From: a virus
Lineage: Duplodnaviria; Heunggongvirae; Uroviricota; Caudoviricetes
IMG/VR virus record: IMGVR_UViG_2778261527_000007
Strand: one strand, 5' to 3'
Length of the DNA stretch: 12,961 nucleotides
How positions within the stretch are numbered: the stretch's first letter is position 1; the number at the start of each line of letters is the position of its first letter. The notes below the pieces were generated by a model, which was not told where the DNA came from, searched no databases, and was given only the letters and a program-made list of their open reading frames with translations. Made by a program: the position numbers and the translations under genes. This document shows, in pieces, positions 1,497-12,961 of the stretch.

Positions 1497-1689
1497 AAAG
1501 GTTTTCCTTATGGAGGGTTTTAGACGTGGAGAGAGTCCACAGGGTGATCCGGTGCAACGCCGGATATAAGGACCGCCACAGAGGACAATCCGAATTGTTG
1601 GAAGATGGGAGGCCGTGGGGTGAATAGAAGAGGGCGGCATCCGCGCCGCCCTTTCTAATCTGGCTCTCTCTCACCCTCTAGGGTGGGGG

Positions 1690-1709
1690 GAGGTGTAAAC
1701 CTCTTTTTT
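1690..1709 (+). terminator. Possible intrinsic terminator hairpin (GAGGU-GUAA-ACCUC followed by UUUUUU)
   Basis: 5-bp stem with GNRA-type tetraloop followed by six T. Nothing obviously coding upstream on +, so the role is unclear. Confidence 0.3.
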
Positions 1710-1767
1710 GTGGTCACTCACCCGCCAGCGTCACGGGAGCAACCGCCAGCCGATGGGTAAATAACCA

Positions 1768-1796
1768 CAAAAAAGAACCCGGTAGGAGAGACCGGG
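1768..1796 (-). terminator. Intrinsic terminator upstream of the head gene pair
   Basis: On the - strand: CCCGGU-CUCUCCU-ACCGGG perfect 6-bp GC-rich stem followed by UUCUUUUUUG. Sits ~270 bp upstream of the decoration-like gene start. Confidence 0.45.
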
Positions 1797-2697
1797 AGAA
1801 GACAATGTAACTTACTGTCTGATCACTTGTTTTCCTGTGTAGCCTCAGAGCCTTACATGATTTGCTTTCATGGTTCAGCAAAGAAGCCACAGAGGAAAAC
1901 GGGACGCAACCAACGCCCCGGAAACCATCGACACAAATCAACAGTTTATCGTTGAGACCAGGTAACCAGCCCGGCCCAACTGTGGACCCCTAAAGGGTCA
2001 ATACAATCGAAGGAGATTCCGCTTGTATTCTGAAGAGCCGCAGTTAGCGACGCTTTAAAATAGGGCCTGTGCCGCAAGCCCTATGATTAGAGGCATTTTG
2101 AATCGTAGGAATGTCATCAACTGGCGGAACTTGAGGAGAGGACCGCACACAAAGCATTCTGGCAAGTGGAGTTGAAAGAACGCTTTGGGTGAGGGCCGGG
2201 GACTTGCTGAAGGTTCCCGGCTCTCTTACAGACCCTGACAGGTTGGCTAAAACCCATGTTTCTGTACAGGTGTGAGGCGGCAAGCTGCAAAACGGCGATT
2301 TCGACATACTCACCATATCCCACACCATGTATATTAGTTTAACACGAATGATTATCATTTGCAATAAAAATTAATTGCATTGTGTTGTTTGATATGATAT
2401 GTGAGATTGAGGGCAGATCTGGCGGCAGGTACAGAGGAGCCACACAGAAGAGGGGCGGGAGCATCCCACAGGGGCCACAGGAAAGCCTCCACGGGGTTTT
2501 AATGGGGTAAGATGATAAATGACCTTGTCACAGTGGCGGACGCGCTGGAGAGCTTTACAGGAGGTTGTAGAGGGTGGAGGGATTATTGATTGATAATTGA
2601 ACAGGTGAGAGTGTAATTAATTTTTATTGACAGTCTATAAAGATCATGTTATTTGCGTGTGCATACGCACTCACGCCCGCGCCTCCGCGAACACATC

Positions 2698-2802
2698 TTT
2701 TAAATAAAAGATTTTTATTATAATCGTTCAATCGGACTTTGACAAGTCCTCTTTCACTCTTAAATAAAAGATCTTTTATATAATATCTATCGTTCAATAA
2801 TT
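2698..2802. repeat. AT-rich imperfect direct repeat (two ~40-bp copies, ~60 bp apart)
   Basis: TTAAATAAAAGAT(C)TTTTAT..TAAT..CGTTCAAT occurs at 2698-2735 and 2758-2802. A TTGACA hexamer lies between the copies (2739-2744). Confidence 0.5.
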
Positions 2803-2948
2803 AATCGCTTAGGCTCTTAATTATTTCACTCATATATTATTACCATTAAAACCTTCTCGGCCTGATCGGCCTTACCAGGTTTTAGGCCGTAGGCCTGTTC
2901 CCACAATGTGGAGTCTCGCCTGTGTGGCTCACTCCAGACAGGGACCCC

Positions 2949-3006
2949 GGAAATATTTTCCGGGCAGGGTGGAAGATTTTTCCGGCCTGTTAGGAAATAT
3001 TTTCCG
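2949..3006. repeat. Three phased 14-bp repeats GGAA(A/G)AT(A/T)TTTTCCG at 22-bp spacing
   Basis: Copies at 2949-2962, 2971-2984 and 2993-3006, each a near-palindrome (GGAAA..TTTCC). The 22-bp phasing equals two helical turns, typical of protein-binding arrays (operator, iteron or packaging-site type). Confidence 0.6.
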
Positions 3007-3414
3007 ACAATAAGACTATATATAAAACTACCCATAAGACTAACACCCAGGGGCCAGGTCAAGATCTTTAAGGGAGTGTTGGGGAAATCGTAGATTGATT
3101 GGTAAGAGACTGATCTCTGTTAAGCGTCTTACAGACGCGCCTCTTTGGCAGCGCTCGTACCAGCGAGCAAGACCCCTTTGGAACACCGCACGATGTAAGG
3201 TGACCTCTGGGCGGCGGGGTGGGGTCCCCGGCCCGGCATAACGTACAGAACCACAACCCACAGGAACCCACCTAAACGCGCCGCTGTGGCGCTCTCTCCT
3301 ACGTAGACAAGGAAACACCTTATAAACGCCCTCCGGCGCTCTGAGAGCCTTACAGGGGCTTTCTGTGCCTATAGCACAATAAACAAATGATCGCAAGATA
3401 AATCAATAAAGTTA

Positions 3415-3443
3415 TTGCGAATCATTGTCAAATAGTGTAAAAT
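3415..3443 (+). promoter_or_regulatory. Candidate sigma70 promoter for the + strand operon
   Basis: TTGCGA (3415-3420), 17-bp spacer, TAAAAT (3438-3443), ~75 bp upstream of the first ORF. A second candidate is TTGTGA (3449-3454) / TATATA (3472-3477). Confidence 0.3.
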
Positions 3444-3517
3444 AGATATTGTGACGGGGTAGTTAATCAGGTATATAAATCCCCATCATACTATAACCAA
3501 CCCAGCAGGAGAATGCA

Positions 3518-3943
3518 ATGAGTATTTACCTTGATGTTGAAAAAATGGTTGAACGTGTCGATCAGCGTGATCTGACCCGTAAGACCCTGACAGAAACCCG
3601 CAGCCGGATGAAAGCCGCCGGACGTATGAGAGAAGTAGAAGCGATTACGCAGGCCCTTGAATTGACCAAATCCAGTGCCTCCGGCGTTATGCGCCAGTCT
3701 CAGCGCCTCACAGGTAAAATTACAGAGATGGACGCAGAGAAGGCATTAGAGCTTAAAGCAACCGTTGCGCTGTTCGCTTCCAAGTCTACGGATCTGCAAG
3801 CCTCCATTGTGCTGGCGTTCCAATCCCTCTTTGAGGCTAAAGGCGTGCCGATGGAATATGACGAAGTGATGGCCTACATCATGTTGAATGCGGCGGATCA
3901 GTTTGAGCGTATCACCGGAGAGCTACCCGTAATCGTACATTAA
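3518..3943 (+). CDS. Hypothetical protein (141 aa)
   Basis: First gene of the operon; ATG preceded by AGGAG with a 6-nt spacer. No family recognised. Confidence 0.65.
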   Translation: MSIYLDVEKMVERVDQRDLTRKTLTETRSRMKAAGRMREVEAITQALELTKSSASGVMRQSQRLTGKITEMDAEKALELKATVALFASKSTDLQASIVLAFQSLFEAKGVPMEYDEVMAYIMLNAADQFERITGELPVIVH

Positions 3944-3972
3944 TTTTTAACTTACTTTTTGGAGAGGAAACA

Positions 3973-4158
3973 ATGAGCAAATATCAGCCTTATGTTGATT
4001 TGAGTGATTCCCCTGTGTTGTCAGCGTATGCACAGCAGACGATCAACCAGTTAGACCCCATCCTGTATAGCGACATTTACGAAATGTTGACGCAGGTTAG
4101 CCCCTCCCAAATGGTGACGATTGGCAACCCGGCTATTACCGCCCCGGCGTCATGGTGA
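3973..4158 (+). CDS. Hypothetical small protein (61 aa)
   Basis: ATG preceded by GGAGAGGA; tightly packed after the previous gene. Confidence 0.45.
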   Translation: MSKYQPYVDLSDSPVLSAYAQQTINQLDPILYSDIYEMLTQVSPSQMVTIGNPAITAPASW

Positions 4159-4220
4159 GGTGATTGGTTCGGCCTCAACCTCACCGCTGAAGACATCGCA
4201 GAATTAAAGGAGATTAGCCT

Positions 4221-4409
4221 GTGAGTAAAAATAAAGAGTTGGGGATCAGCTTCGATCCCTATGTGATGGAGCAGCTTTTCGCGTTGGCCTCCACCCGTGA
4301 ACATGGCAGCGTTCACACCATTGTTAAGAAAGCCGTTAGCCAGTACCTGAAAACCGTTAATTCCATCTCTGTTAAGGATTCCCAAAATGACAGCAGCCGC
4401 AGTAAGTAA
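4221..4409 (+). CDS. Ribbon-helix-helix (CopG/Arc-like) DNA-binding protein (62 aa, GTG start)
   Basis: GTG start preceded by AAGGAG. N-terminal pattern ISFDPYVMEQLFALASTREHGSVHTIVKKAVSQYLK fits the beta-strand/helix/loop/helix layout of RHH regulators. Confidence 0.5.
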   Translation: MSKNKELGISFDPYVMEQLFALASTREHGSVHTIVKKAVSQYLKTVNSISVKDSQNDSSRSK

Positions 4410-5049
4410 GCCATTTACCGCAATCCCGCATGACCTTGCGGACATTGAGCTGATCGGAGGCAAGGCGTTTACCATGAACATGGTTTACACCTACAGCCTG
4501 ATCAAAGGTTACCAGGACAATGGGCAAACGGCCTATTTCTCACAAGATCTTTTAGCCCGTCGCCTGGGGGCCACAGATCGAACCGTCCGCAACCTGTTGC
4601 GCGATATGTTGGAGATGGGTCTGATTAACAAGACCGGGCAGATCGGCGGCAAGACCTGCCATTACACAGTTAACCCGATCACCCCGGAAATGGTGGGAAC
4701 CCCTGAAGCCGCCAAACCTGAAGTAACCAAACCAACCGCAGCACCCCAACCGAAGGAGACCGTAGAGAATGCAGGAAGTAACCAGCCTGGAATTGTTAAG
4801 TGTGGATCTGAAAGTGTACATAGAAGCCGCCCGGCGTCGCCTGGAGCTTCTCCTGTGGACCACAGCGGGGGCGCTATTCGTCCCGCTCCTGTCCCTGTGC
4901 CAGTAGAGCAGGGGGCCGCAAACGATGATTTACGCAACCCTGTTATTAATTTTGTGGCTGGCTCTAATGTGATGATGGTCAACGGCTTGCCTGTTGAATA
5001 TCTGGAGCCAGAAGAAAGCGCCGTTGATCAGTTTGGTGATGCTTTCTAA
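4387..5049 (+). CDS. Winged-HTH (HTH_36-like) DNA-binding protein, possible replication initiator or organiser (220 aa)
   Basis: ATG preceded by AAGGA; overlaps the RHH gene by 23 nt. Motif AYFSQDLLARRLGATDRTVRNLLRDMLEMGLI resembles the HTH of phage/plasmid replication proteins, followed by a Pro/Ala-rich linker and an acidic C-terminal domain. Alternative start at ATG 4474. Confidence 0.6.
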   Translation: MTAAAVSKPFTAIPHDLADIELIGGKAFTMNMVYTYSLIKGYQDNGQTAYFSQDLLARRLGATDRTVRNLLRDMLEMGLINKTGQIGGKTCHYTVNPITPEMVGTPEAAKPEVTKPTAAPQPKETVENAGSNQPGIVKCGSESVHRSRPASPGASPVDHSGGAIRPAPVPVPVEQGAANDDLRNPVINFVAGSNVMMVNGLPVEYLEPEESAVDQFGDAF

Positions 5050-5125
5050 AAATCTGCAATTGATTTCCCAATAATAACACTATACACCAAACCCCCGCGC
5101 TTTACAACCCTCTGGAGACTCTCGC

Positions 5126-5692
5126 ATGAATGAATTTATTACAACCAAATTCAAAGCCTTATCCTCTGAGGAAGAGGCCGCAGTTAACGCACTGGCTGAG
5201 AAATTGGCAGCAAACAAGCCCCGCCGGATTATGGATGAGAGCCACTTAACCCCGGATCAAATCCTGAAGATCAAGCGGGCCTGTATTCAGGGCCACAGCG
5301 CTAAAGCCATCCAAGCGGCGTTTAATGTGTCGCTGGCTTACGTCCTGAAAGTAAAGCGCAGCCACAACCCCCAGAAGTACCAAAAGACCCCGCTAACTTT
5401 GGCTGAAAAAGGCGTTATGGCTAAACAGATGGAAGCCGACGGCCTGAGCCTCTCCAAAATGGCGGAACTCCTGGGGATTAACAGTAAGATGGTCTCCCTA
5501 CTTCTTACCCAACCTTCACCCCGTTACCTGGTGGAGCAAATGCTCCCGTATGACCAAGTTTTGCAGAATCTACGCAGCGCCCGCTATGTAGAAAACCCTG
5601 TATACAAAGAGGGGACGAATAAGCGCCGTGTGCGTCTAATCGTTTCTGAAGCACGTCAGCAGACCCGCCAGGCAATCATTAAATCCCGGTAA
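5126..5692 (+). CDS. DNA-binding protein with two predicted HTH motifs (188 aa)
   Basis: ATG preceded by GGAGA. Two HTH-like segments (..GHSAKAIQAAFNVSLAYVLKVKR.. and ..GLSLSKMAELLGINSKMVSLLL..) and a basic C-terminus. Confidence 0.6.
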   Translation: MNEFITTKFKALSSEEEAAVNALAEKLAANKPRRIMDESHLTPDQILKIKRACIQGHSAKAIQAAFNVSLAYVLKVKRSHNPQKYQKTPLTLAEKGVMAKQMEADGLSLSKMAELLGINSKMVSLLLTQPSPRYLVEQMLPYDQVLQNLRSARYVENPVYKEGTNKRRVRLIVSEARQQTRQAIIKSR

Positions 5693-5863
5693 CTATGCCC
5701 AACCCAACGGAATGGGGTCTAAAGGATTATTTAGGCTCCAAACTGGTTAAGCGTCAGACAAGACTCTCTAACTTTCTCGCCTCACTCCTCTACATCCCCT
5801 TTAAACCCGCCTCCCTCTTCCTGTGGGGTGTGGTAATCACTTTACTTATAAGGACCCTCTCAC

Positions 5864-6238
5864 ATGGAAGCATTTAAGAACCTCCTCAATCAGTTGGAAA
5901 TTCAGAAGGCAGAACAGCGCCAGCGGGAAGCCGAAGAGGCAACCAAACAGAACGAACTCCGCAAGGCACAGGCCGATCTGTCACTGGATGAGGCTATCGC
6001 TCTGTACGCCACACAGTTGGAAGCCTCCGCCAATGCCGCAGACAGCGCCCAGAAGGGCCGCGCCATTAAGAGCCGGGGAATTGCTCTGTGTCACAAGGAT
6101 CAGGGATTCAGCGCCAACGGTCGCCCGGTCTCTCTCCTGACCAAATCCGCAGACCTGCCAGCAGGTCACCGCCGGGTAATCATTAACAAGGCAGCAGGGC
6201 GCACCCTGAAGGCTATCAAACTGGAAGGGGATGAATAA
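5864..6238 (+). CDS. Hypothetical protein (124 aa), translationally coupled to the tape-measure-domain gene
   Basis: ATG preceded by AAGGA. Its stop TAA (6236-6238) overlaps the next ATG (6238-6240) as TAATG. N-terminus is coiled-coil-like. Confidence 0.6.
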   Translation: MEAFKNLLNQLEIQKAEQRQREAEEATKQNELRKAQADLSLDEAIALYATQLEASANAADSAQKGRAIKSRGIALCHKDQGFSANGRPVSLLTKSADLPAGHRRVIINKAAGRTLKAIKLEGDE

Positions 6239-8373
6239 TGAGCGGTAACGTGATCATTACCAAAACGATTAACCGGACCATGTTCACCACGGACGGGGCC
6301 AGCTATAAAAAGACAGTTGACCGTATCAAACAGGTAGGGAAAGAGTGGGACAAAGTAGCGTCCAAGATGAAACCGCTACGCCTCAAGTTTGAGGAAAACG
6401 CCTACACCAAGATCCGCCGGAAACAGCAGGACGCCGCCGCAAAAGCAGCACTGGCAGAAGCCAAAGCCAAAGCGGCAGCAGACGCCAAAGCAGCCAAAGC
6501 ACAGATCGCAGCGGAGCGTAAGATCCAGACAATCCGCGCTAAAGCTATCCGCTTCAGCACTTCAGCGGCTAACGCCAACGTGACCCCGGCCCAACGTGCT
6601 GGACACCTCCAGGAGTTTGGACAGCTTACGCGCCAGTATCACGCCGGGTCTATGGCATTGCAGGAATATAACGCCCGTGTGTCAAAACTTCAGCAAACCA
6701 TGCGCCAACAAGGCCGGGTAGGCATGAGGGGAGCCACAATTCCAGTAACCGCCAAAGTTAACAAACTGGACACCTCCATGATCGAGGGTGCAGGGGGGGC
6801 GATCACCATTGCCGCAACTGTGGCGCTGAGCGGCAAGATCATGACCACCGGGCAGGATTTTGAATCCGCGCTTTCTGGTCTGACAGCGATCACCGGTTCC
6901 ACAGATAAGGCCGCTAAAGAGTTTGATTATCTCCGTGATCAATCCAACCGTTTGGGGCTGGACCTCCTGAAGACTTCAAAGGATTACACTCAATTTGCCG
7001 CCGCTGTTGGTGACAAACTCCCTAAAGACCAGATGAGATCCATCTTTGAGGGTGCCAGTGAATGGGGCCTTGTTACTGGTGCAGACGCCGACGCACAAAG
7101 CCGCGCTTTGAAAGCACTTAACCAAATGATGAGTAAGGGAACGGTGATGAGTGAAGAACTCAAAGGCCAGCTTTCCGAAGCTCTCCCGGGCGCTGTGGGT
7201 CTGTTCGTTAAGGCTCTCAACCAGATGAAAGGGACAACCAACCTTACAGAAAAGGATCTGTTTGACCTGATGCAACAAGGGAAGCTGTTCTCTAAGGACA
7301 TCCTCCCGGAAGTGGCGAAACAGATGAAAGCCGCAGCTCGTAACGGCGGCGCTCTGGATAAGGCTATGAAGTCCAACCGGGCAAGTTGGCAGCGCCTGCA
7401 AACCAGTATGCAGAACGCTATGAATATCTTCTTTACTTCTGGCTTTGGTAACTCACTAACCAGCGCTTTCGACGCTATCAGCGCCGCTGTTAACGGCTCT
7501 GGTGGGGCCTTTGAGATGTTCGGGCATATCGCCGGGAAAATCGTTGAGGGTGCCACAGATGCGTTTACAGAGTTGCACGACACTGTGATCCTGACCTTCC
7601 GCATTATTGAGTATTACGCCGCTAAGATGGGGATCACTGGTGAGCAGCTTAAATCCTGGGGAGAAATGGCAGCATACGCCGCCGGGGTGGCTCTGTTCGC
7701 TGGCTCTATCTGGAAGTTGGGCGGGGCCTTTAAATGGTTGTTGACCATGCTCAACCCGCTAACCAAATTGCTGGGGGTCATGAAAGGGATCGCCGCTATT
7801 GGTGGCATTGAATCCGCTACAACTGGCGGATCTGGTGGGGAAGGTAAAGACAAGCCAAACAAACCGGGCCGGGGTCCGAAAGTTGGCAAGGTAGGCGGCG
7901 CGGCGGCTCTCTCTGGCGGTCCTGTTGGCTGGGGCATTGCGATCGGTTCGGTAGGTGGGGATTATGCCTGGGATAAAGTCATGGACGCTAACGACGCCAT
8001 GTATGGACAGGACACCACCGCCGGAGGCAATCTGAAGAAAGATAGCCCGCTGGGTAAACTGTGGGATTTCATCCACAGCCCAGACCTTCCGACTAATCCA
8101 GACTTTGCCAAACCAACAGATAAAACAGGGTGGGTAAGCTCTTACTCCAATCCGGGTTATGTTCCTCCTGCGCCGACGATTACAGCGCCACAGCTTAAAG
8201 TTGATATGGCAGGTAATCCACTGATGACGCCGCCAGCGTGGCTAAACCAGCCGCTTAACGTGAACGTCAATGTGAAAGTGCAGGATGGGCAGGTTAGGGA
8301 TCTGGTCCGCTCTGAAGTTGAGACCAACAACCAGCAGGCTTTCAACATGCTGATGCAGGGCGGGCCGAACTAA
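6238..8373 (+). CDS. Phage tail tape-measure-domain protein (711 aa)
   Basis: N-terminal Ala/Lys-rich coiled coil, then a region (..ADAQSRALKALNQMMSKGTVMSEELKGQLSEALPGAVGLFVKALNQM..) matching the conserved tape-measure domain as I recall it. C-terminal half has hydrophobic Gly-rich segments (..VGGAAALSGGPVGWGIAIGSVGG..) typical of tape-measure proteins. RBS AGGGGA. Confidence 0.75.
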   Translation: MSGNVIITKTINRTMFTTDGASYKKTVDRIKQVGKEWDKVASKMKPLRLKFEENAYTKIRRKQQDAAAKAALAEAKAKAAADAKAAKAQIAAERKIQTIRAKAIRFSTSAANANVTPAQRAGHLQEFGQLTRQYHAGSMALQEYNARVSKLQQTMRQQGRVGMRGATIPVTAKVNKLDTSMIEGAGGAITIAATVALSGKIMTTGQDFESALSGLTAITGSTDKAAKEFDYLRDQSNRLGLDLLKTSKDYTQFAAAVGDKLPKDQMRSIFEGASEWGLVTGADADAQSRALKALNQMMSKGTVMSEELKGQLSEALPGAVGLFVKALNQMKGTTNLTEKDLFDLMQQGKLFSKDILPEVAKQMKAAARNGGALDKAMKSNRASWQRLQTSMQNAMNIFFTSGFGNSLTSAFDAISAAVNGSGGAFEMFGHIAGKIVEGATDAFTELHDTVILTFRIIEYYAAKMGITGEQLKSWGEMAAYAAGVALFAGSIWKLGGAFKWLLTMLNPLTKLLGVMKGIAAIGGIESATTGGSGGEGKDKPNKPGRGPKVGKVGGAAALSGGPVGWGIAIGSVGGDYAWDKVMDANDAMYGQDTTAGGNLKKDSPLGKLWDFIHSPDLPTNPDFAKPTDKTGWVSSYSNPGYVPPAPTITAPQLKVDMAGNPLMTPPAWLNQPLNVNVNVKVQDGQVRDLVRSEVETNNQQAFNMLMQGGPN

Positions 8374-8389
8374 CCGCCCATACAAAAAA

Positions 8390-8419
8390 GGCTCCCCTAG
8401 TGGGAGCCTTTTCTCTTTT
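8390..8419. terminator. Bidirectional intrinsic terminator between the convergent tape-measure and recombinase genes
   Basis: GGCTCCC-CTAGT-GGGAGCC perfect 7-bp stem, flanked by an A-run (8384-8389) and a T-rich tail (8409-8419). Confidence 0.6.
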
Positions 8420-8442
8420 ATAACTCCTAATATCCAGGCTTT

Positions 8443-9009
8443 TCATAACAGATCTTCTATTGAATATTTATTACTGAAATCATCTACTTTGCGTTGTGTG
8501 GCCCCAATGTAATGGAGCGTACTGGATAACGATTTGTGCCCCAATGCCTTACTGATTACGGCTATATCCTCCCCATTGTCATAACCAATCGTTGGTTTAC
8601 TCTTCCTCATGCTGTGGGTCGAAAGATTCAGCCCCAGCTTTTCCCCGGCGTAGCTAATTTCCTCATGCAATTTGGAGCGGCTCACAGGTTTTCCCTTGCT
8701 CCTGTGGCTGTCCAACTGTAAGAGGTATACATGATCAGGGTTCGCCTCTCTCCGGGCCGCTATGATGCGTTTAGCGGTATCGGTGAGCCTCACCCGGACA
8801 GATTCACCCGTTTTCTGTTGGGACAGGACAAGGTGATCGCCTTTGATGTCGTCATAACGGATAGAGCGCAGATCCGACACCCTCAGCATTAATTCATAAC
8901 CCAGCAACCAGGCGTCACGGTACAGCGTCAGCCCCTTGCCCTGTTTGAGTAGCTCAACCGCTACCGCTTTCACTTCCTGAACTGATTTACAGCCCTCTAC
9001 GAAATTCAT
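8443..9009 (-). CDS. Tyrosine recombinase, integrase catalytic domain only (188 aa; FimB/FimE-sized)
   Basis: Strong RBS GGAGGG 5 nt before the ATG. All catalytic signature residues of lambda-Int-type recombinases are present in order: R (LRVSDL), K (QQKTG), H-x-x-R (HSMRKS), H and Y (LGHKSLSSTLHY). There is no room for N-terminal arm- or core-binding domains. Confidence 0.75.
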   Translation of the reverse strand: MNFVEGCKSVQEVKAVAVELLKQGKGLTLYRDAWLLGYELMLRVSDLRSIRYDDIKGDHLVLSQQKTGESVRVRLTDTAKRIIAARREANPDHVYLLQLDSHRSKGKPVSRSKLHEEISYAGEKLGLNLSTHSMRKSKPTIGYDNGEDIAVISKALGHKSLSSTLHYIGATQRKVDDFSNKYSIEDLL

Positions 9010-9033
9010 TCTGTACCCTCCAGATCCTAACTG

Positions 9034-9050
9034 TGATCAATTCTTGATCA
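9034..9050. promoter_or_regulatory. 17-bp palindrome TGATCAA-TTC-TTGATCA with two GATC sites, in the recombinase promoter region
   Basis: Perfect 7-bp inverted arms with a 3-bp spacer, 25-41 bp upstream of the recombinase start codon. Confidence 0.35.
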
Positions 9051-9403
9051 AAAACATGCACTTGTAAACGACAAAAATGATTAATTTTATGATGTGTCTT
9101 TTTAGTGAATTAAATCGGGTTTAATCGCGTTTAATGGTAAAGTAATGACCCGGCAGGGGAGGTAATGACCTGTTTAAGTGGGTAAAAGATGGTTACTTAA
9201 TGTACTATCACCACAAGGCGGGTAAGGTGATTTGACTCCCCCAGCGCCTTAAAGTTACTGTATTTGTGGGCAATTAATTATTGTTTCGTTATGGTGTTGC
9301 CTGGCAAATTTTCAATTTACCCTCAAGAAAAAATCCCCAGCTTTTTTATCCTTATATGAGAATCAATATCATTTGTAAACGATAGTCGTTCTCGTTACCA
9401 ATC

Positions 9404-9582
9404 GGGGCGAAAGCCTTCGCCCCTCAAAGGGCCTCTGTAGGCCCGCTCTCTGTATGCGCCTGTGGCGCTACCACTCTTAACCCTGTGGGTTTGTATTACT
9501 TGTCACAAGATAATGCGCCACAGGCGCACAGGGGAGGCGTCCGCCTCCAGGGTGGCCCGGCTGGGCCACTGGTCCACAGGGT
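9404..9582. repeat. Cluster of GC-rich hairpins and nested inverted repeats
   Basis: Successive perfect stems: GGGGCGAA/TTCGCCCC (9404-9423), GGGCCT/AGGCCC (9429-9444), GCGCC-TGT-GGCGC (9456-9468) and its reverse complement GCGCC-ACA-GGCGC (9515-9527), GGAGGC/GCCTCC (9533-9548), GTGGCCC/GGGCCAC (9552-9569). A 9-bp inverted pair ACCCTGTGG (9480-9488) / CCACAGGGT (9574-9582) encloses part of it. Does not match the REP consensus I remember. Confidence 0.5.
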
Positions 9583-9972
9583 AAAACAACAGAATGGTAT
9601 TGTGTTGTTATTAAGTAATTGAGAATAAAGGGATATCTGAGTGAGCGCACTGTAAGAGCGGAAGGTTGGACAATGTTTGACCAGAATGCAGGCCATCCGG
9701 TAGGGAGCGCCCCCAGATATTTGGCGAAAATACTCTCATCACCCGGGGCCTCAGATCGAGGGGCCTAGCAACAATATCCAAACTCCCGGATATTTTCCCA
9801 CCCAACTGGAAGGAATCCGCCCCTATTTTCTGTTCGTGTATAGGTTAGGCTGAGGGAGGCTTGCCAATGTACACCCCCTGGATTTGGTGATCTGTTAAGT
9901 TATTGATTTTGATCGATTTTAGATCAATCATCCGTTGCCGGGATTACCCCCCACCCAGACGGATGGCACACA

Positions 9973-10155
9973 ATGAATAACGATAAAGCAAACCACCCTA
10001 AACACTTCCAATACTTGGGCCGCATGGTCACTGTTTACCCTACATACATCATTATTGACGGTATCAAGATCAGCCGTGCCCGTCTTTCCTTTGCATTCCA
10101 ATTGGAATTGGCAAAAGCACTTCGACTGCATGAAGAAAGCGTATGCAGAAAATAA
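9973..10155 (+). CDS. Hypothetical small protein (60 aa), uncertain
   Basis: ORF followed 37 nt later by a strong intrinsic terminator; RBS is weak (GGATGG). Confidence 0.3.
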   Translation: MNNDKANHPKHFQYLGRMVTVYPTYIIIDGIKISRARLSFAFQLELAKALRLHEESVCRK

Positions 10156-10191
10156 ATTTCATTTAAATCTTCACGACTGAATAATTTACTT

Positions 10192-10217
10192 AAGCCGCCT
10201 TATGGGCGGTTTTTTTT
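10192..10217 (+). terminator. Intrinsic terminator
   Basis: GC-rich stem (GCCGCC / GGCGG) with 5-nt loop, followed by eight T (10210-10217). Confidence 0.6.
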
Positions 10218-10366
10218 GTGCCTGCCATTTATCTGTGGGTCACAACGTGAGACACAAACTGGGACACAGAGGATTTTTTAGGGTTGAGTCTTTGGCTTCC
10301 CGCTGGCATGATCCAGAACAGGGATTAACGGGACGTTAATCGCAAGCTTTTGATTTTGTTTTATTT

Positions 10367-10492
10367 GACTCGGGGTGCCCTTCTTAAATGAAGGCTGAGA
10401 AATACCCGTATTACCTGATCTGGATAATGCCAGCGTAGGGAAGTCACGGACCACCAGGTCATTGCTTCTTCACGTTATGGCAGGAGCAAACT
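10367..10492 (+). promoter_or_regulatory. TPP (THI-box) riboswitch in the thiM leader
   Basis: Aptamer (about 10367-10445) GACUCGGGGUGCCCUUC..GGCUGAGAAAUACCCGUAUUACCUGAUCUGGAUAAUGCCAGCGUAGGGAAGUC is near-identical to the E. coli thiM TPP aptamer as recalled, including the CUGAGA and ACCUGAUCUGGAUAAUGCCAGCGUAGGGAA elements. Expression platform runs to the thiM SD and ATG. Confidence 0.9.
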
Positions 10493-11281
10493 ATGCAAGT
10501 CGACCTGCTGAGTTCAGCGCAATCTGCGCACGCGTTACACCTTTTTCACCAACATTCCCCTCTTGTGCACTGCATGACCAACGATGTGGTGCAAACCTTT
10601 ACTGCCAATACCTTGCTGGCGCTCGGTGCATCGCCAGCGATGGTTATCGAAACCGAAGAGGCCAGTCAGTTTGCGGCTATCGCCAGTGCCTTGTTGATTA
10701 ACGTTGGCACACTGACGCAGCCACGCGCTCAGGCGATGCGTGCTGCCGTTGAGCAAGCAAAAAGCTCTCAAACACCCTGGACGCTTGATCCAGTAGCGGT
10801 TGGTGCGCTCGATTATCGCCGCCATTTTTGTCATGAACTTTTATCTTTTAAACCGGCAGCGATACGTGGTAATGCTTCGGAAATCATGGCATTAGCTGGC
10901 ATTGCTAATGGTGGACGGGGAGTGGATACCACTGACGCCGCAGCTAACGCGATACCCGCTGCACAAACACTGGCACGGGAAACTGGCGCAATCGTCGTGG
11001 TCACTGGCGAGGTGGATTATGTTACCGATGGCCATCGCGCCGTTGGCATTCACGGTGGCGATCCGTTAATGACCAAAGTGGTAGGAACTGGCTGTGCATT
11101 ATCGGCGGTTGTCGCTGCCTGCTGTGCGTTACCAGGCGATACGCTGGAAAATGTCGCATCTGCCTGTCACTGGATGAAACAAGCCGGAGAGCGCGCAGTC
11201 GCCAGAAGCGAGGGGCCAGGCAGTTTTGTTCCACATTTCCTTGATGCGCTCTGGCAATTGACGCAGGAGGTGCAGGCATGA
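10493..11281 (+). CDS. thiM: Hydroxyethylthiazole kinase
   Basis: 262-aa product essentially matching E. coli ThiM as recalled ([31 protein letters not shown]..). RBS AGGAG; preceded by the TPP riboswitch. Confidence 0.95.
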
Positions 11282-12078
11282 AACGAATTAACGCTCTGAC
11301 GATTGCCGGTACTGATCCCAGTGGTGGTGCGGGGATTCAGGCCGATCTTAAAACCTTCTCGGCACTTGGCGCTTATGGTTGCTCAGTTATTACTGCACTG
11401 GTGGCGCAAAATACCCGTGGCGTACAGTCGGTGTATCGCATTGAGCCTGATTTTGTCGCCGCCCAGCTCGATTCGGTGTTCAGCGATGTGCGAATCGACA
11501 CCACTAAAATCGGTATGTTGGCGGAAACCGATATTGTTGAAGCGGTGGCAGAACGGTTGCAACGTTATCAGATCCAAAACGTGGTACTCGACACCGTTAT
11601 GCTGGCAAAAAGCGGCGACCCGCTGCTTTCACCTTCGGCGGTTGCTACACTGCGCAGTCGATTATTGCCACAGGTTTCATTAATAACGCCAAACTTGCCC
11701 GAAGCTGCCGCCTTGCTCGACGCGCCACACGCGCGCACCGAACAGGAAATGCTGGAACAAGGGCGATCGCTGTTGGCGATGGGCTGTGGCGCAGTGCTAA
11801 TGAAAGGTGGTCATCTGGATGATGAGCAAAGCCCGGACTGGCTGTTTACCCGCGAGGGTGAACAACGGTTTACCGCACCGCGCATTATGACCAAAAACAC
11901 CCACGGCACTGGTTGTACGCTCTCTGCGGCGTTGGCTGCACTACGCCCGCGCCATACAAACTGGGCTGACACCGTACAGGAGGCAAAAAGCTGGCTTTCA
12001 TCAGCATTAGCCCAGGCCGACACGCTGGAAGTTGGTCACGGTATTGGTCCGGTTCACCACTTCCACGCCTGGTGGTGA
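11278..12078 (+). CDS. thiD: Hydroxymethylpyrimidine / phosphomethylpyrimidine kinase
   Basis: 266-aa product matching E. coli ThiD as recalled ([27 protein letters not shown]..). ATGA start/stop overlap with thiM. Confidence 0.95.
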
Positions 12079-12142
12079 GCACCGTACTATAGCTGCTTTG
12101 GTTATTGTCAGCCTTTGGCACTGACATTCAGGGATGAAACCA

Positions 12143-12961
12143 ATGCAGCTAAGAATTACCAGTCGAAAAAAACTCACCTCTCTATTATGCGCTCTTGGGC
12201 TAATTTCCATCGTTGCAATTTATCCGCGTCAGACGGTGAATTTTTTCTATTCGACAGCAGTTCAGATTACAGACTACATCCATTTCTACGGTTATCGCCC
12301 GGTTAAATCTTTCGCTATTCGCATTCCTGCCAGTTACACCATTCACGGAATAGATGTTTCTCGCTGGCAGGAGCGGATCGACTGGCAGCGGGTGGCAAAA
12401 ATGCGCGACAACGGTATCCGCTTACAGTTTGCTTTTATTAAGGCGACGGAAGGCGAAAAGCTGGTGGACCCGTATTTTTCGCGTAACTGGCAACTAAGCC
12501 GCGAAAATGGCCTGCTGCGCGGGGCGTATCATTATTTCTCCCCGTCGGTAGCAGCGCCGGTTCAGGCACGATTATTTCTGCAAACGGTGGATTTCTCACA
12601 AGGCGATTTCCCTGCGGTACTGGACGTAGAAGAACGGGGAAAATTATCGGCAAAAGAATTACGCAAACGAGTAAGTCAGTGGCTAAAAATGGTCGAAAAA
12701 AGTACGGGAAAAAAGCCGATTATTTACTCAGGAGCCGTTTTTTATCACACCAATCTGGCGGGCTATTTCAATGAATATCCGTGGTGGGTGGCTCACTATT
12801 ATCAACGTCGTCCGGACAATGACGGCATGGCCTGGCGCTTCTGGCAGCATTCCGACCGTGGACAGGTAGATGGCATCAATGGTCCGGTGGATTTTAATGT
12901 ATTTCATGGCACGGTGGAGGAGTTGCAGGCATTCGTTGATGGGATTAAAGAAACGCCTTAA
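12143..12961 (+). CDS. yegX: GH25-family lysozyme-like protein YegX
   Basis: Product matches E. coli YegX as recalled, with a GH25 muramidase-like core. Start chosen at ATG 12143 (SD AGGGA 8 nt upstream) over the in-frame ATG at 12134. Stop codon is the last 3 nt of the window. Confidence 0.85.
   Translation: MQLRITSRKKLTSLLCALGLISIVAIYPRQTVNFFYSTAVQITDYIHFYGYRPVKSFAIRIPASYTIHGIDVSRWQERIDWQRVAKMRDNGIRLQFAFIKATEGEKLVDPYFSRNWQLSRENGLLRGAYHYFSPSVAAPVQARLFLQTVDFSQGDFPAVLDVEERGKLSAKELRKRVSQWLKMVEKSTGKKPIIYSGAVFYHTNLAGYFNEYPWWVAHYYQRRPDNDGMAWRFWQHSDRGQVDGINGPVDFNVFHGTVEELQAFVDGIKETP

Follow-up and report, generated by a model that had tools for sequence, protein, structure and literature searches.

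A tyrosine recombinase reduced to its catalytic domain in the cargo region of a satellite-like island at thiM in Escherichia coli

What is the function of a tyrosine recombinase that has no DNA-binding domain besides its catalytic domain? The question is raised by an open reading frame (ORF) at positions 8443..9009, on the minus strand and with an ATG start codon, in a stretch of 12,961 nucleotides from the IMG/VR record IMGVR_UViG_2778261527_000007 (Caudoviricetes), hereafter called the window. A preliminary description, made from the sequence alone, proposed that the 188-amino-acid (aa) product corresponds to the catalytic domain of lambda-type integrases, and left two readings: a stand-alone recombinase of the FimB/FimE type, or the remnant of an integrase whose N-terminal part has been deleted. 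A core-binding domain that clamps the DNA is usually considered a requirement of tyrosine recombinases; the textbook exception is the pair FimB and FimE (about 190–200 aa). The analysis reported here confirms that the 188-aa protein is a tyrosine recombinase reduced to its catalytic domain, with intact active-site residues.

The only Pfam domain found in the protein is PF00589 (Phage_integrase), which matches residues 33–170 with a score of 63.3 bits (cut-off 27.1, E=3.2e-17); no arm-binding or core-binding domain is present in the Pfam scan or in an AlphaFold model. Six catalytic residues (R43, K66, H132, R135, H158 and Y167) show no variation among 18 aligned sequences, down to 28% identity, and a second alignment shows that the same six residues are kept in the homologues of Bacillus and Streptococcus phages. 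The AlphaFold model, built from the alignment of 18 relatives (predicted local distance difference test score, pLDDT, of 87.8; predicted template modelling score, pTM, of 0.83), consists of one compact catalytic-domain fold in which R43 is preceded by just two N-terminal helices. Its closest structural counterparts are the catalytic domains of lambda Int, XerA and Cre (Foldseek probability of 1.00, template modelling score of about 0.7 when normalised to the query). The single Pfam match, the invariant hexad, the compact fold and the structural matches thus bear out two statements of the preliminary description, namely that all signature residues are present and that the N-terminal DNA-binding domains are missing. 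We infer that the protein is catalytically active as a tyrosine recombinase.

The protein is recorded in RefSeq as WP_001011965.1, under the generic label "tyrosine-type recombinase/integrase". It also matches the profile of PHROG 216 (E=6e-29), its residues 1–177 aligning with positions 49–231 of a profile of 301; this family was defined by clustering alone, without a functional definition. Nothing about the protein contradicts known biology.

The length of the relatives bears on whether the short format is native. Close relatives in E. coli, Cronobacter and Serratia (77–98% identity) have 188–197 aa, and metagenomic relatives with 38–44% identity have 184–189 aa. A profile search of 1.84 billion representative proteins returned 203 clusters at E≤1e-30, which are almost all 180–195 aa long, with alignments that start at their first residue. 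Even the Gram-positive phage members of the family share the conserved N-terminal sequence MNxVE. The pairwise ratios of non-synonymous to synonymous substitution rates (dN/dS) among seven orthologues range from 0.03 to 0.17, and between two island lineages the gene shows 7% synonymous change and 0 non-synonymous change. These comparisons indicate that the gene is under purifying selection and that the short format is native to a large family.

The proposal of a truncated integrase, in which an N-terminally deleted gene has retained an open catalytic domain by chance, is hardly credible in view of these data. It draws its only support from the missing N-terminal domains and from the decay of many island copies (by IS911, IS4 and internal deletions). 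On the contrary, the length of 180–195 aa is kept in 203 divergent clusters and in all close relatives, the N-terminus is conserved, dN/dS is about 0.1, and the promoter and ribosome-binding site are conserved as well. Nor is there a frameshifted N-terminal part upstream of the gene: the three upstream ORFs on the same strand have no Pfam match at E≤1, and a tblastn search of 8300–10400 with seven full-length integrases found no remnant of an integrase N-terminus. The conserved length from residue 1, the invariant hexad, the low dN/dS and the lack of an upstream remnant refute this reading.

The gene has putative expression signals of its own. The strong ribosome-binding site mentioned in the preliminary description is the sequence GGAGGG at 9016..9021 (minus strand), 7 nt 5' of the ATG; it reads GGAGG in Cronobacter and Serratia quinivorans and GGGAG in other Serratia. 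A consensus scan detects a putative sigma-70-like promoter, TTTACA-17-AAGAAT, at 9040..9068 on the minus strand. The promoter block TTTTGTCGTTTACAAG is invariant in five islands and conserved in Serratia, and the promoter-like site and the ribosome-binding site are both conserved across three genera (E. coli, Cronobacter and Serratia). On the 3' side, a hairpin terminator at 8386..8412 (an 11-bp stem followed by a T run) is common to the recombinase gene and to the convergent tape-measure gene; in Cronobacter, the tape-measure gene is followed by the same hairpin.

In Serratia and Cronobacter, a small ORF with a signal-peptide-like N-terminus lies directly 3' of the recombinase gene; it is missing in E. 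coli. Its product has 61–87 aa and the motif GRITxSNP...CIY...CPYxKTFDT (10588–10788 in locus L003, 10642–10854 in L008 and 18900–19109 in L006). This ORF also occurs in an island which does not have the recombinase.

The recombinase gene belongs to an island inserted in front of thiM. The genes thiM, thiD and yegX of the E. coli core genome occupy 10493–12961 of the window, and the thiamine pyrophosphate (TPP) riboswitch of thiM lies at 10361–10458, which is the only match in an Rfam search of the window and its non-coding region. The junction with the core genome is at about 10367 and everything to its left is island. The right-hand copy of a 72-nt attachment repeat (10367..10438), 93% identical to the copy at the far end, is within the riboswitch. 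The far-end copy adjoins the large integrase (7149–7219 in L001, 11568–11638 in L004), so that the island rebuilds the 5' part of the riboswitch on the thiM side. The island is about 14 kb long (7149–22139 in L001; 1–10438 in the window) and is present in a few dozen of the 5,426 complete E. coli genomes: by megablast, 31 match positions 8300–10200, 26 nearly over the full length.

Among the products of the island are a nuclease, a capsid protein similar to lambda E, a decoration-like protein and a large tyrosine integrase, which has 451 aa in its intact form and is disrupted by IS911 in strain 90-1. A non-coding stretch of about 1.9 kb and the genes for small regulators, for a RepO-like protein and for a tape-measure protein of 711 aa belong to the island as well. 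The tape-measure gene (6238..8373, plus strand), which matches PF20155 (8.5e-25) and PHROG 5255 (1e-110), is present in all related islands and closes the backbone, ahead of the cargo region. This cargo end holds the small recombinase gene, about 1 kb of non-coding DNA and an ORF of 60 codons (orf60).

Sister islands with the same backbone are inserted elsewhere: at rluB in Serratia, at a tRNA-Thr and a tRNA-Gly in E. coli, and at yet another site in Cronobacter. Their integrases are tyrosine recombinases of 542–554 aa or 399–401 aa, or a serine recombinase of 583 aa; the 451–583-aa integrases of the related islands are located at the att-proximal end. Two sister islands have no small recombinase gene. 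Since the related islands have separate large integrases, and some sister islands lack the small gene, the small recombinase is not the integrase of the island but accessory cargo of its variable end; without arm- and core-binding domains, it does not qualify as a lambda- or P4-type integrase either. What the window carries is a real accessory recombinase, neither debris nor the enzyme responsible for the movement of the island.

FimB and FimE are the obvious point of comparison. They are also catalytic-domain-only tyrosine recombinases of about 200 aa encoded by stand-alone genes with their own promoters, and their first catalytic arginine is about 45 residues from the N-terminus, as is R43 here. 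However, the sequence similarity does not go beyond the superfamily level: the NCBIfam models of the Fim invertases, PRK09870 and PRK09871, give 24.6 and 18.8 bits, compared to cut-offs of 221 and 222. In addition, the gene lies on a satellite-like island rather than beside a fimbrial operon, and neither an adjacent switch flanked by inverted repeats nor an orientation polymorphism was found. To judge from these comparisons, the protein is Fim-like in its architecture, and not in its family membership.

The preliminary description also proposed that the enzyme inverts or excises a nearby segment. The flanking 2 kb are colinear in all complete E. coli genomes which carry the island (about 27), and the six E. 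coli genomes which have kept most of the 1.9-kb non-coding region are colinear there as well. Ten further assemblies with the identical protein, from several enterobacterial backgrounds, are colinear over 8374–10366, and four Cronobacter-type contigs have the same arrangement as E. coli. No inversion or excision of a flanking segment was therefore seen in about 37 independent assemblies, which report the majority orientation, so that a rare switch could escape. Thus, the idea of a short stand-alone enzyme maintained by selection holds, while the kinship with the Fim family and the rearrangement of a neighbouring segment find no support.

In Serratia, the unit formed by the promoter and the gene is reversed relative to the tape-measure gene, compared to E. 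coli and Cronobacter. A site-specific inversion of this cassette between Serratia and E. coli was considered and rejected: the flanking small ORFs are not homologous, the non-coding parts cannot be aligned and there are no repeats at the boundaries. With such surroundings and no boundary repeats, the reversal looks like a reshuffling of cargo rather than a switch.

The relatives of the protein are found on several kinds of mobile elements. Homologues that are 35–43% identical over the full length are common in genomic islands of Pseudomonas, Vibrio, Shewanella and Idiomarina, next to genes for RadC, AlpA, YagK/YfjJ, DUF2787, an LRAT-like protein and a P4-type integrase. Like the protein of the window, these island and plasmid homologues of gammaproteobacteria have about 185 aa and are accessory genes of elements with their own P4-type integrase, but their neighbours are not capsid or tape-measure genes and there is no 1-kb non-coding region upstream. 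Relatives with about 30% identity also occur in 243 plasmid records, including Vibrio plasmids of about 80 kb of the p48/10 type, and phage-plasmids are among the carriers of homologues; on a mobilisable Macrococcoides plasmid of 12 kb, the homologue is the only annotated recombinase.

Relatives with about 30% identity are present in 201 phage records, mostly of temperate phages of Streptococcus and Bacillus. The members of PHROG 216, annotated as 'integrase' or 'LambdaSa2 site-specific recombinase' in temperate phages of Streptococcus, Bacillus and Listeria and in streptococcal satellites, have about 180 aa. They resemble the 188-aa protein end to end (about 30% identity), with the same hexad and a similar N-terminus, and the element which carries them also has a separate, normal integrase. 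The host phylum differs, and so does the position of the gene, which follows the tape-measure gene here: the homologue of Bacillus phages overlaps the stop codon of ArpU, the gene of the late activator; that of streptococcal phages immediately precedes terS; and that of streptococcal satellites, which have a normal integrase as well, is the final gene of the element.

Next to FimB and FimE, this is a second family, much larger and phylogenetically wide, that combines the minimal format with an intact active site; clustering at 50% identity divides it into more than 200 clusters, and its members are carried by phages, satellites, plasmids and islands. Given this size and the minimal format, the protein is of moderate interest to recombinase specialists. 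Its substrate, once found, would show how a lone catalytic domain achieves site specificity, and the enzyme is a possible very small recombinase tool.

The nearest relatives in sequence are the Xer recombinases. The protein scores far below the thresholds of the NCBIfam models (50.3 bits compared to 220 for XerA, 37.7 compared to 335 for XerC), and the PDB entry 4a8e is matched at E=4e-9. The Xer proteins (XerA, XerC/D, XerS and XerH), Cre/loxP of P1 and ResD/rfsF of F have the closest catalytic domains, and they are carried by circular replicons or act on them. They differ in having their own N-terminal core-binding domain of about 100 aa, which is lacking in the 188-aa protein. Moreover, a search of the surroundings of the gene, of low power for short sites, revealed no dif- or lox-like site.

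The common denominator of the phages, satellites, islands and plasmids that carry the family is a circular, replicating stage. Cre/loxP, ResD/rfsF and Xer at cer are extra recombinases which resolve multimers or cyclise such molecules. Because the family is found on elements with this stage, where additional recombinases have these tasks, the role tentatively preferred, at a little less than an even chance, is that of an auxiliary recombinase of the Cre/Xer/ResD type which resolves multimers of the circular form of the island or cyclises it. The accessory gene would be expressed from its own promoter, the island being integrated into the thiM leader by its separate large integrase. The enzyme would act on a short site, presumably carried by the island itself; it would resolve multimers of the excised, replicating circle, or cyclise the circle after entry. 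Host DNA-bending proteins or protein–protein contacts might replace the missing core-binding domain. Further observations are in favour of this role: the nearest relatives in sequence, the Xer recombinases, are dimer-resolution enzymes, the island encodes a RepO-like initiator, as identified with PHROG, and in another island the orf60 module is found beside a small recombinase of the serine resolvase/invertase type. The recombinases of plasmid prophages are recorded to be either Xer-like tyrosine enzymes, with a presumed role in dimer resolution, or small serine enzymes of the resolvase/invertase type (PMC8026635).

Several points weigh against this proposal. Integrated phages and satellites that package their DNA from concatemers have no obvious need of dimer resolution. 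The promoter looks constitutive and, in Serratia and Cronobacter, it is accompanied by the co-oriented ORF of a small secreted protein; this combination looks more like a 'moron' expressed in the lysogen. No pair of arms with a spacer of 6–8 bp was recognised near the recombinase gene, in a search of low power for short sites, and a systematic search of 44 loci for perfect repeats of 14 nt or more, direct or inverted, up to 2.5 kb from the homologues revealed no recurrent architecture. The palindromes and AT-rich repeats of the region are either not conserved between genera or are promoter- or operator-like. Finally, no experimental or functional study of any member of the family was found in the literature searched.

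Alternatively, the protein could be an invertase of the Fim/Hin/RecV kind, which would flip a short promoter segment, either in the adjacent 1-kb non-coding region or in trans on the host chromosome, and thereby switch genes, neighbouring or distant. Island-borne Fim-like recombinases do act in trans on the host chromosome, and the catalytic-domain-only architecture of FimB/FimE, the gene's own putative promoter in the integrated state and the opposite orientation of the promoter-plus-gene unit in Serratia compared to E. coli and Cronobacter are in line with this role. An imperfect inverted repeat (9034–9063/9897–9926, 70%) also brackets the non-coding region in E. coli, and in Cronobacter. 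However, this repeat overlaps the promoter and was not detected in Serratia, no consistent inverted repeats surround the homologues in 44 loci, the protein is not of the Fim family, and a single arrangement is seen in the E. coli genomes, the further assemblies and the Cronobacter-type contigs described above. An invertase is thus rather unlikely, although a rare switch, local or in trans, would be plausible. A function other than recombination, as a sequence-specific DNA-binding or nicking protein (for example a regulator, or a packaging or replication helper), has precedents in YopR/MrpR, the tyrosine-recombinase-like repressor of SPbeta, and in the HNH nucleases encoded in front of terS in cos phages. 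The position of the homologues at the ArpU stop codon, before terS or at the end of streptococcal satellites agrees with such a function, as do the phased A/T repeats just upstream of the recombinase's own promoter, and the absence of a core-binding domain would weaken clamp-like binding to DNA. Yet the full hexad, including the tyrosine nucleophile, is invariant throughout the family; this is not expected of a pure DNA-binding protein, which disfavours that role and makes a non-recombinase function unlikely.

It is somewhat less probable still that the catalytic-domain-only recombinases form a distinct functional class of phages, satellites, plasmids and islands which does not work like a plain Cre/Xer-like resolvase. 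The enzyme could then need a partner to choose its site, for instance a small protein encoded nearby or the structured element at 9453–9585 described below, or it could be an element-borne 'master' recombinase or nickase that acts in trans on the DNA of a helper phage or of the host. The last alternative is that the gene and its promoter, with the small downstream ORF where it is present, are a self-mobile cassette or a secondary integrase that moves itself or the island. Indeed, the promoter-plus-gene unit of about 700 nt is the only DNA that can be aligned between the cargo regions of E. coli and Serratia, where it has both orientations, and the remnant locus L096 has kept nothing but this unit. 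In Serratia marcescens, 26-nt direct repeats (81%) are present at −127 and at +415 past the stop codon, but this is a single case with two copies which has no counterpart in other Serratia or in E. coli. Besides, the exact protein is always beside thiM at a constant distance, and the cargo regions of these islands are shuffled by ordinary recombination. A mobile cassette is therefore very improbable.

The preliminary description considered the region upstream of the gene to be rich in repeats. This is true in part: the region contains a number of short GC hairpins and one perfect inverted repeat of 14 nt, but none of these could be linked to the recombinase. In an alignment of five islands, the identity at synonymous sites between E. 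coli and Cronobacter is about 72%, which serves as a neutral yardstick; most of the 1-kb non-coding region is 74% identical, that is, it evolves at about the neutral rate. Three blocks stand out, none of which shows two inverted arms about a spacer of 6–8 bp, the canonical form of a recombination site. The best-conserved one (9093..9131), upstream of the promoter, is a candidate protein-binding site: it contains A/T repeats phased by 10 bp (ATTAAACGCG, ATTAAACCCG and ATTTAATTCA), with runs of 24 nt and 14 nt that are invariant in the five islands, and it is recognisable in Serratia.

The second block, block B (9453..9585), about 450–570 bp upstream of the recombinase gene, is about 95% conserved, compared to the neutral value of about 72%. 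It contains two interleaved inverted repeats, 9455–9468/9515–9528 (perfect, 14 nt) and 9477–9488/9574–9585, and the motifs CCTGTGG/CCACAGG occur in it repeatedly. The fold predicted for the block clearly exceeds those of shuffled controls (z = −5.0 and −4.0), and it matches no Rfam family. Block B could be a small RNA or a protein-binding array.

The third block (9894..9927), of 34 nt, is invariant in the alignment of the five islands and contains the palindrome TTGATC-N7-GATCAA. It precedes orf60 (9973..10155, plus strand), a small conserved ORF which is divergent from the recombinase gene and has copies with 85–95% identity in Cronobacter and in L004/L005; no match to Pfam, NCBIfam or PHROG was found for it. 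The ORF and the invariant block (9760–10155 of the window) recur with 91% identity at 15001–15380 of L005, an unrelated island at the yciO/rluB site, where their neighbours encode a 189-aa serine recombinase, a DUF4238 protein and a protein with a RelA/SpoT domain. Since the module stands there beside an unrelated serine recombinase, 9894–9927 is unlikely to be the crossover site of the 188-aa enzyme, and the palindrome was rejected as its site for the same reason, as a part of the orf60 module. A pairing of this palindrome (9905–9930) with the sequence TGATCAA-TTC-TTGATCA in the recombinase promoter was rejected too, the latter not being conserved in Cronobacter or Serratia. Another candidate was the AT-rich motif CAATAAAAATTAATTGCA (2362–2379, 2612–2629, 2795–2808 and 9270–9285), as a shufflon-like site; it was rejected, being absent from Serratia, L006 and L007. 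Its copy at 2362–2379 abuts a conserved promoter-like sequence, TTGCAA-17-TAAACT, on the minus strand.

This promoter-like sequence is part of a 46-nt motif (2323–2368) whose conservation is 91% in 24 further genomes of E. coli and partial in Serratia. Read on the minus strand as TTGCAA-N17-TAAACT, it is probably the promoter of the decoration/capsid operon, to which it would give a leader of about 700 nt. The motif lies in about 1.9 kb without ORFs (1640–3518), between the capsid/decoration operon and the rightward genes. This region has many short GC hairpins and is in part 67–80% conserved in the sister island L007, at another site; it has no Rfam match at the gathering thresholds. In L006 (tRNA-Thr/proA, 12001–16800 compared to 2323–8373 of the window), the block from the replication genes to the tape-measure gene is in the opposite orientation relative to the capsid module, with a breakpoint directly after the 46-nt motif. 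This flip was rejected as a product of the small recombinase: it is explained as a modular rearrangement at a promoter boundary, and L006 lacks the small recombinase.

Downstream of the capsid gene, an ORF of 171 aa (1125–1640) has a weak match to the lambda decoration protein D (E=0.004); its start codon is uncertain because RefSeq gives a shorter version of 123 aa. The island family as a whole has genes for a capsid, a decoration-like, a RepO-like and a tape-measure protein, whereas genes for a portal, a terminase or a tail are absent. Its members occupy no fewer than four chromosomal sites and have three kinds of integrase; the family resembles a phage satellite that was not matched to the descriptions of P4-like satellites, phage-inducible chromosomal islands (PICI), capsid-forming PICI (cfPICI) or PICI-like elements (PLE). 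Many copies of the island are decayed (L001 7306–9916; L099, L102 and L105), with the insertion sequence (IS) IS911 in the integrase gene, IS4 beside the recombinase gene, or internal deletions. The recombinase gene, the non-coding region and orf60 are retained beside thiM in all the island copies seen.

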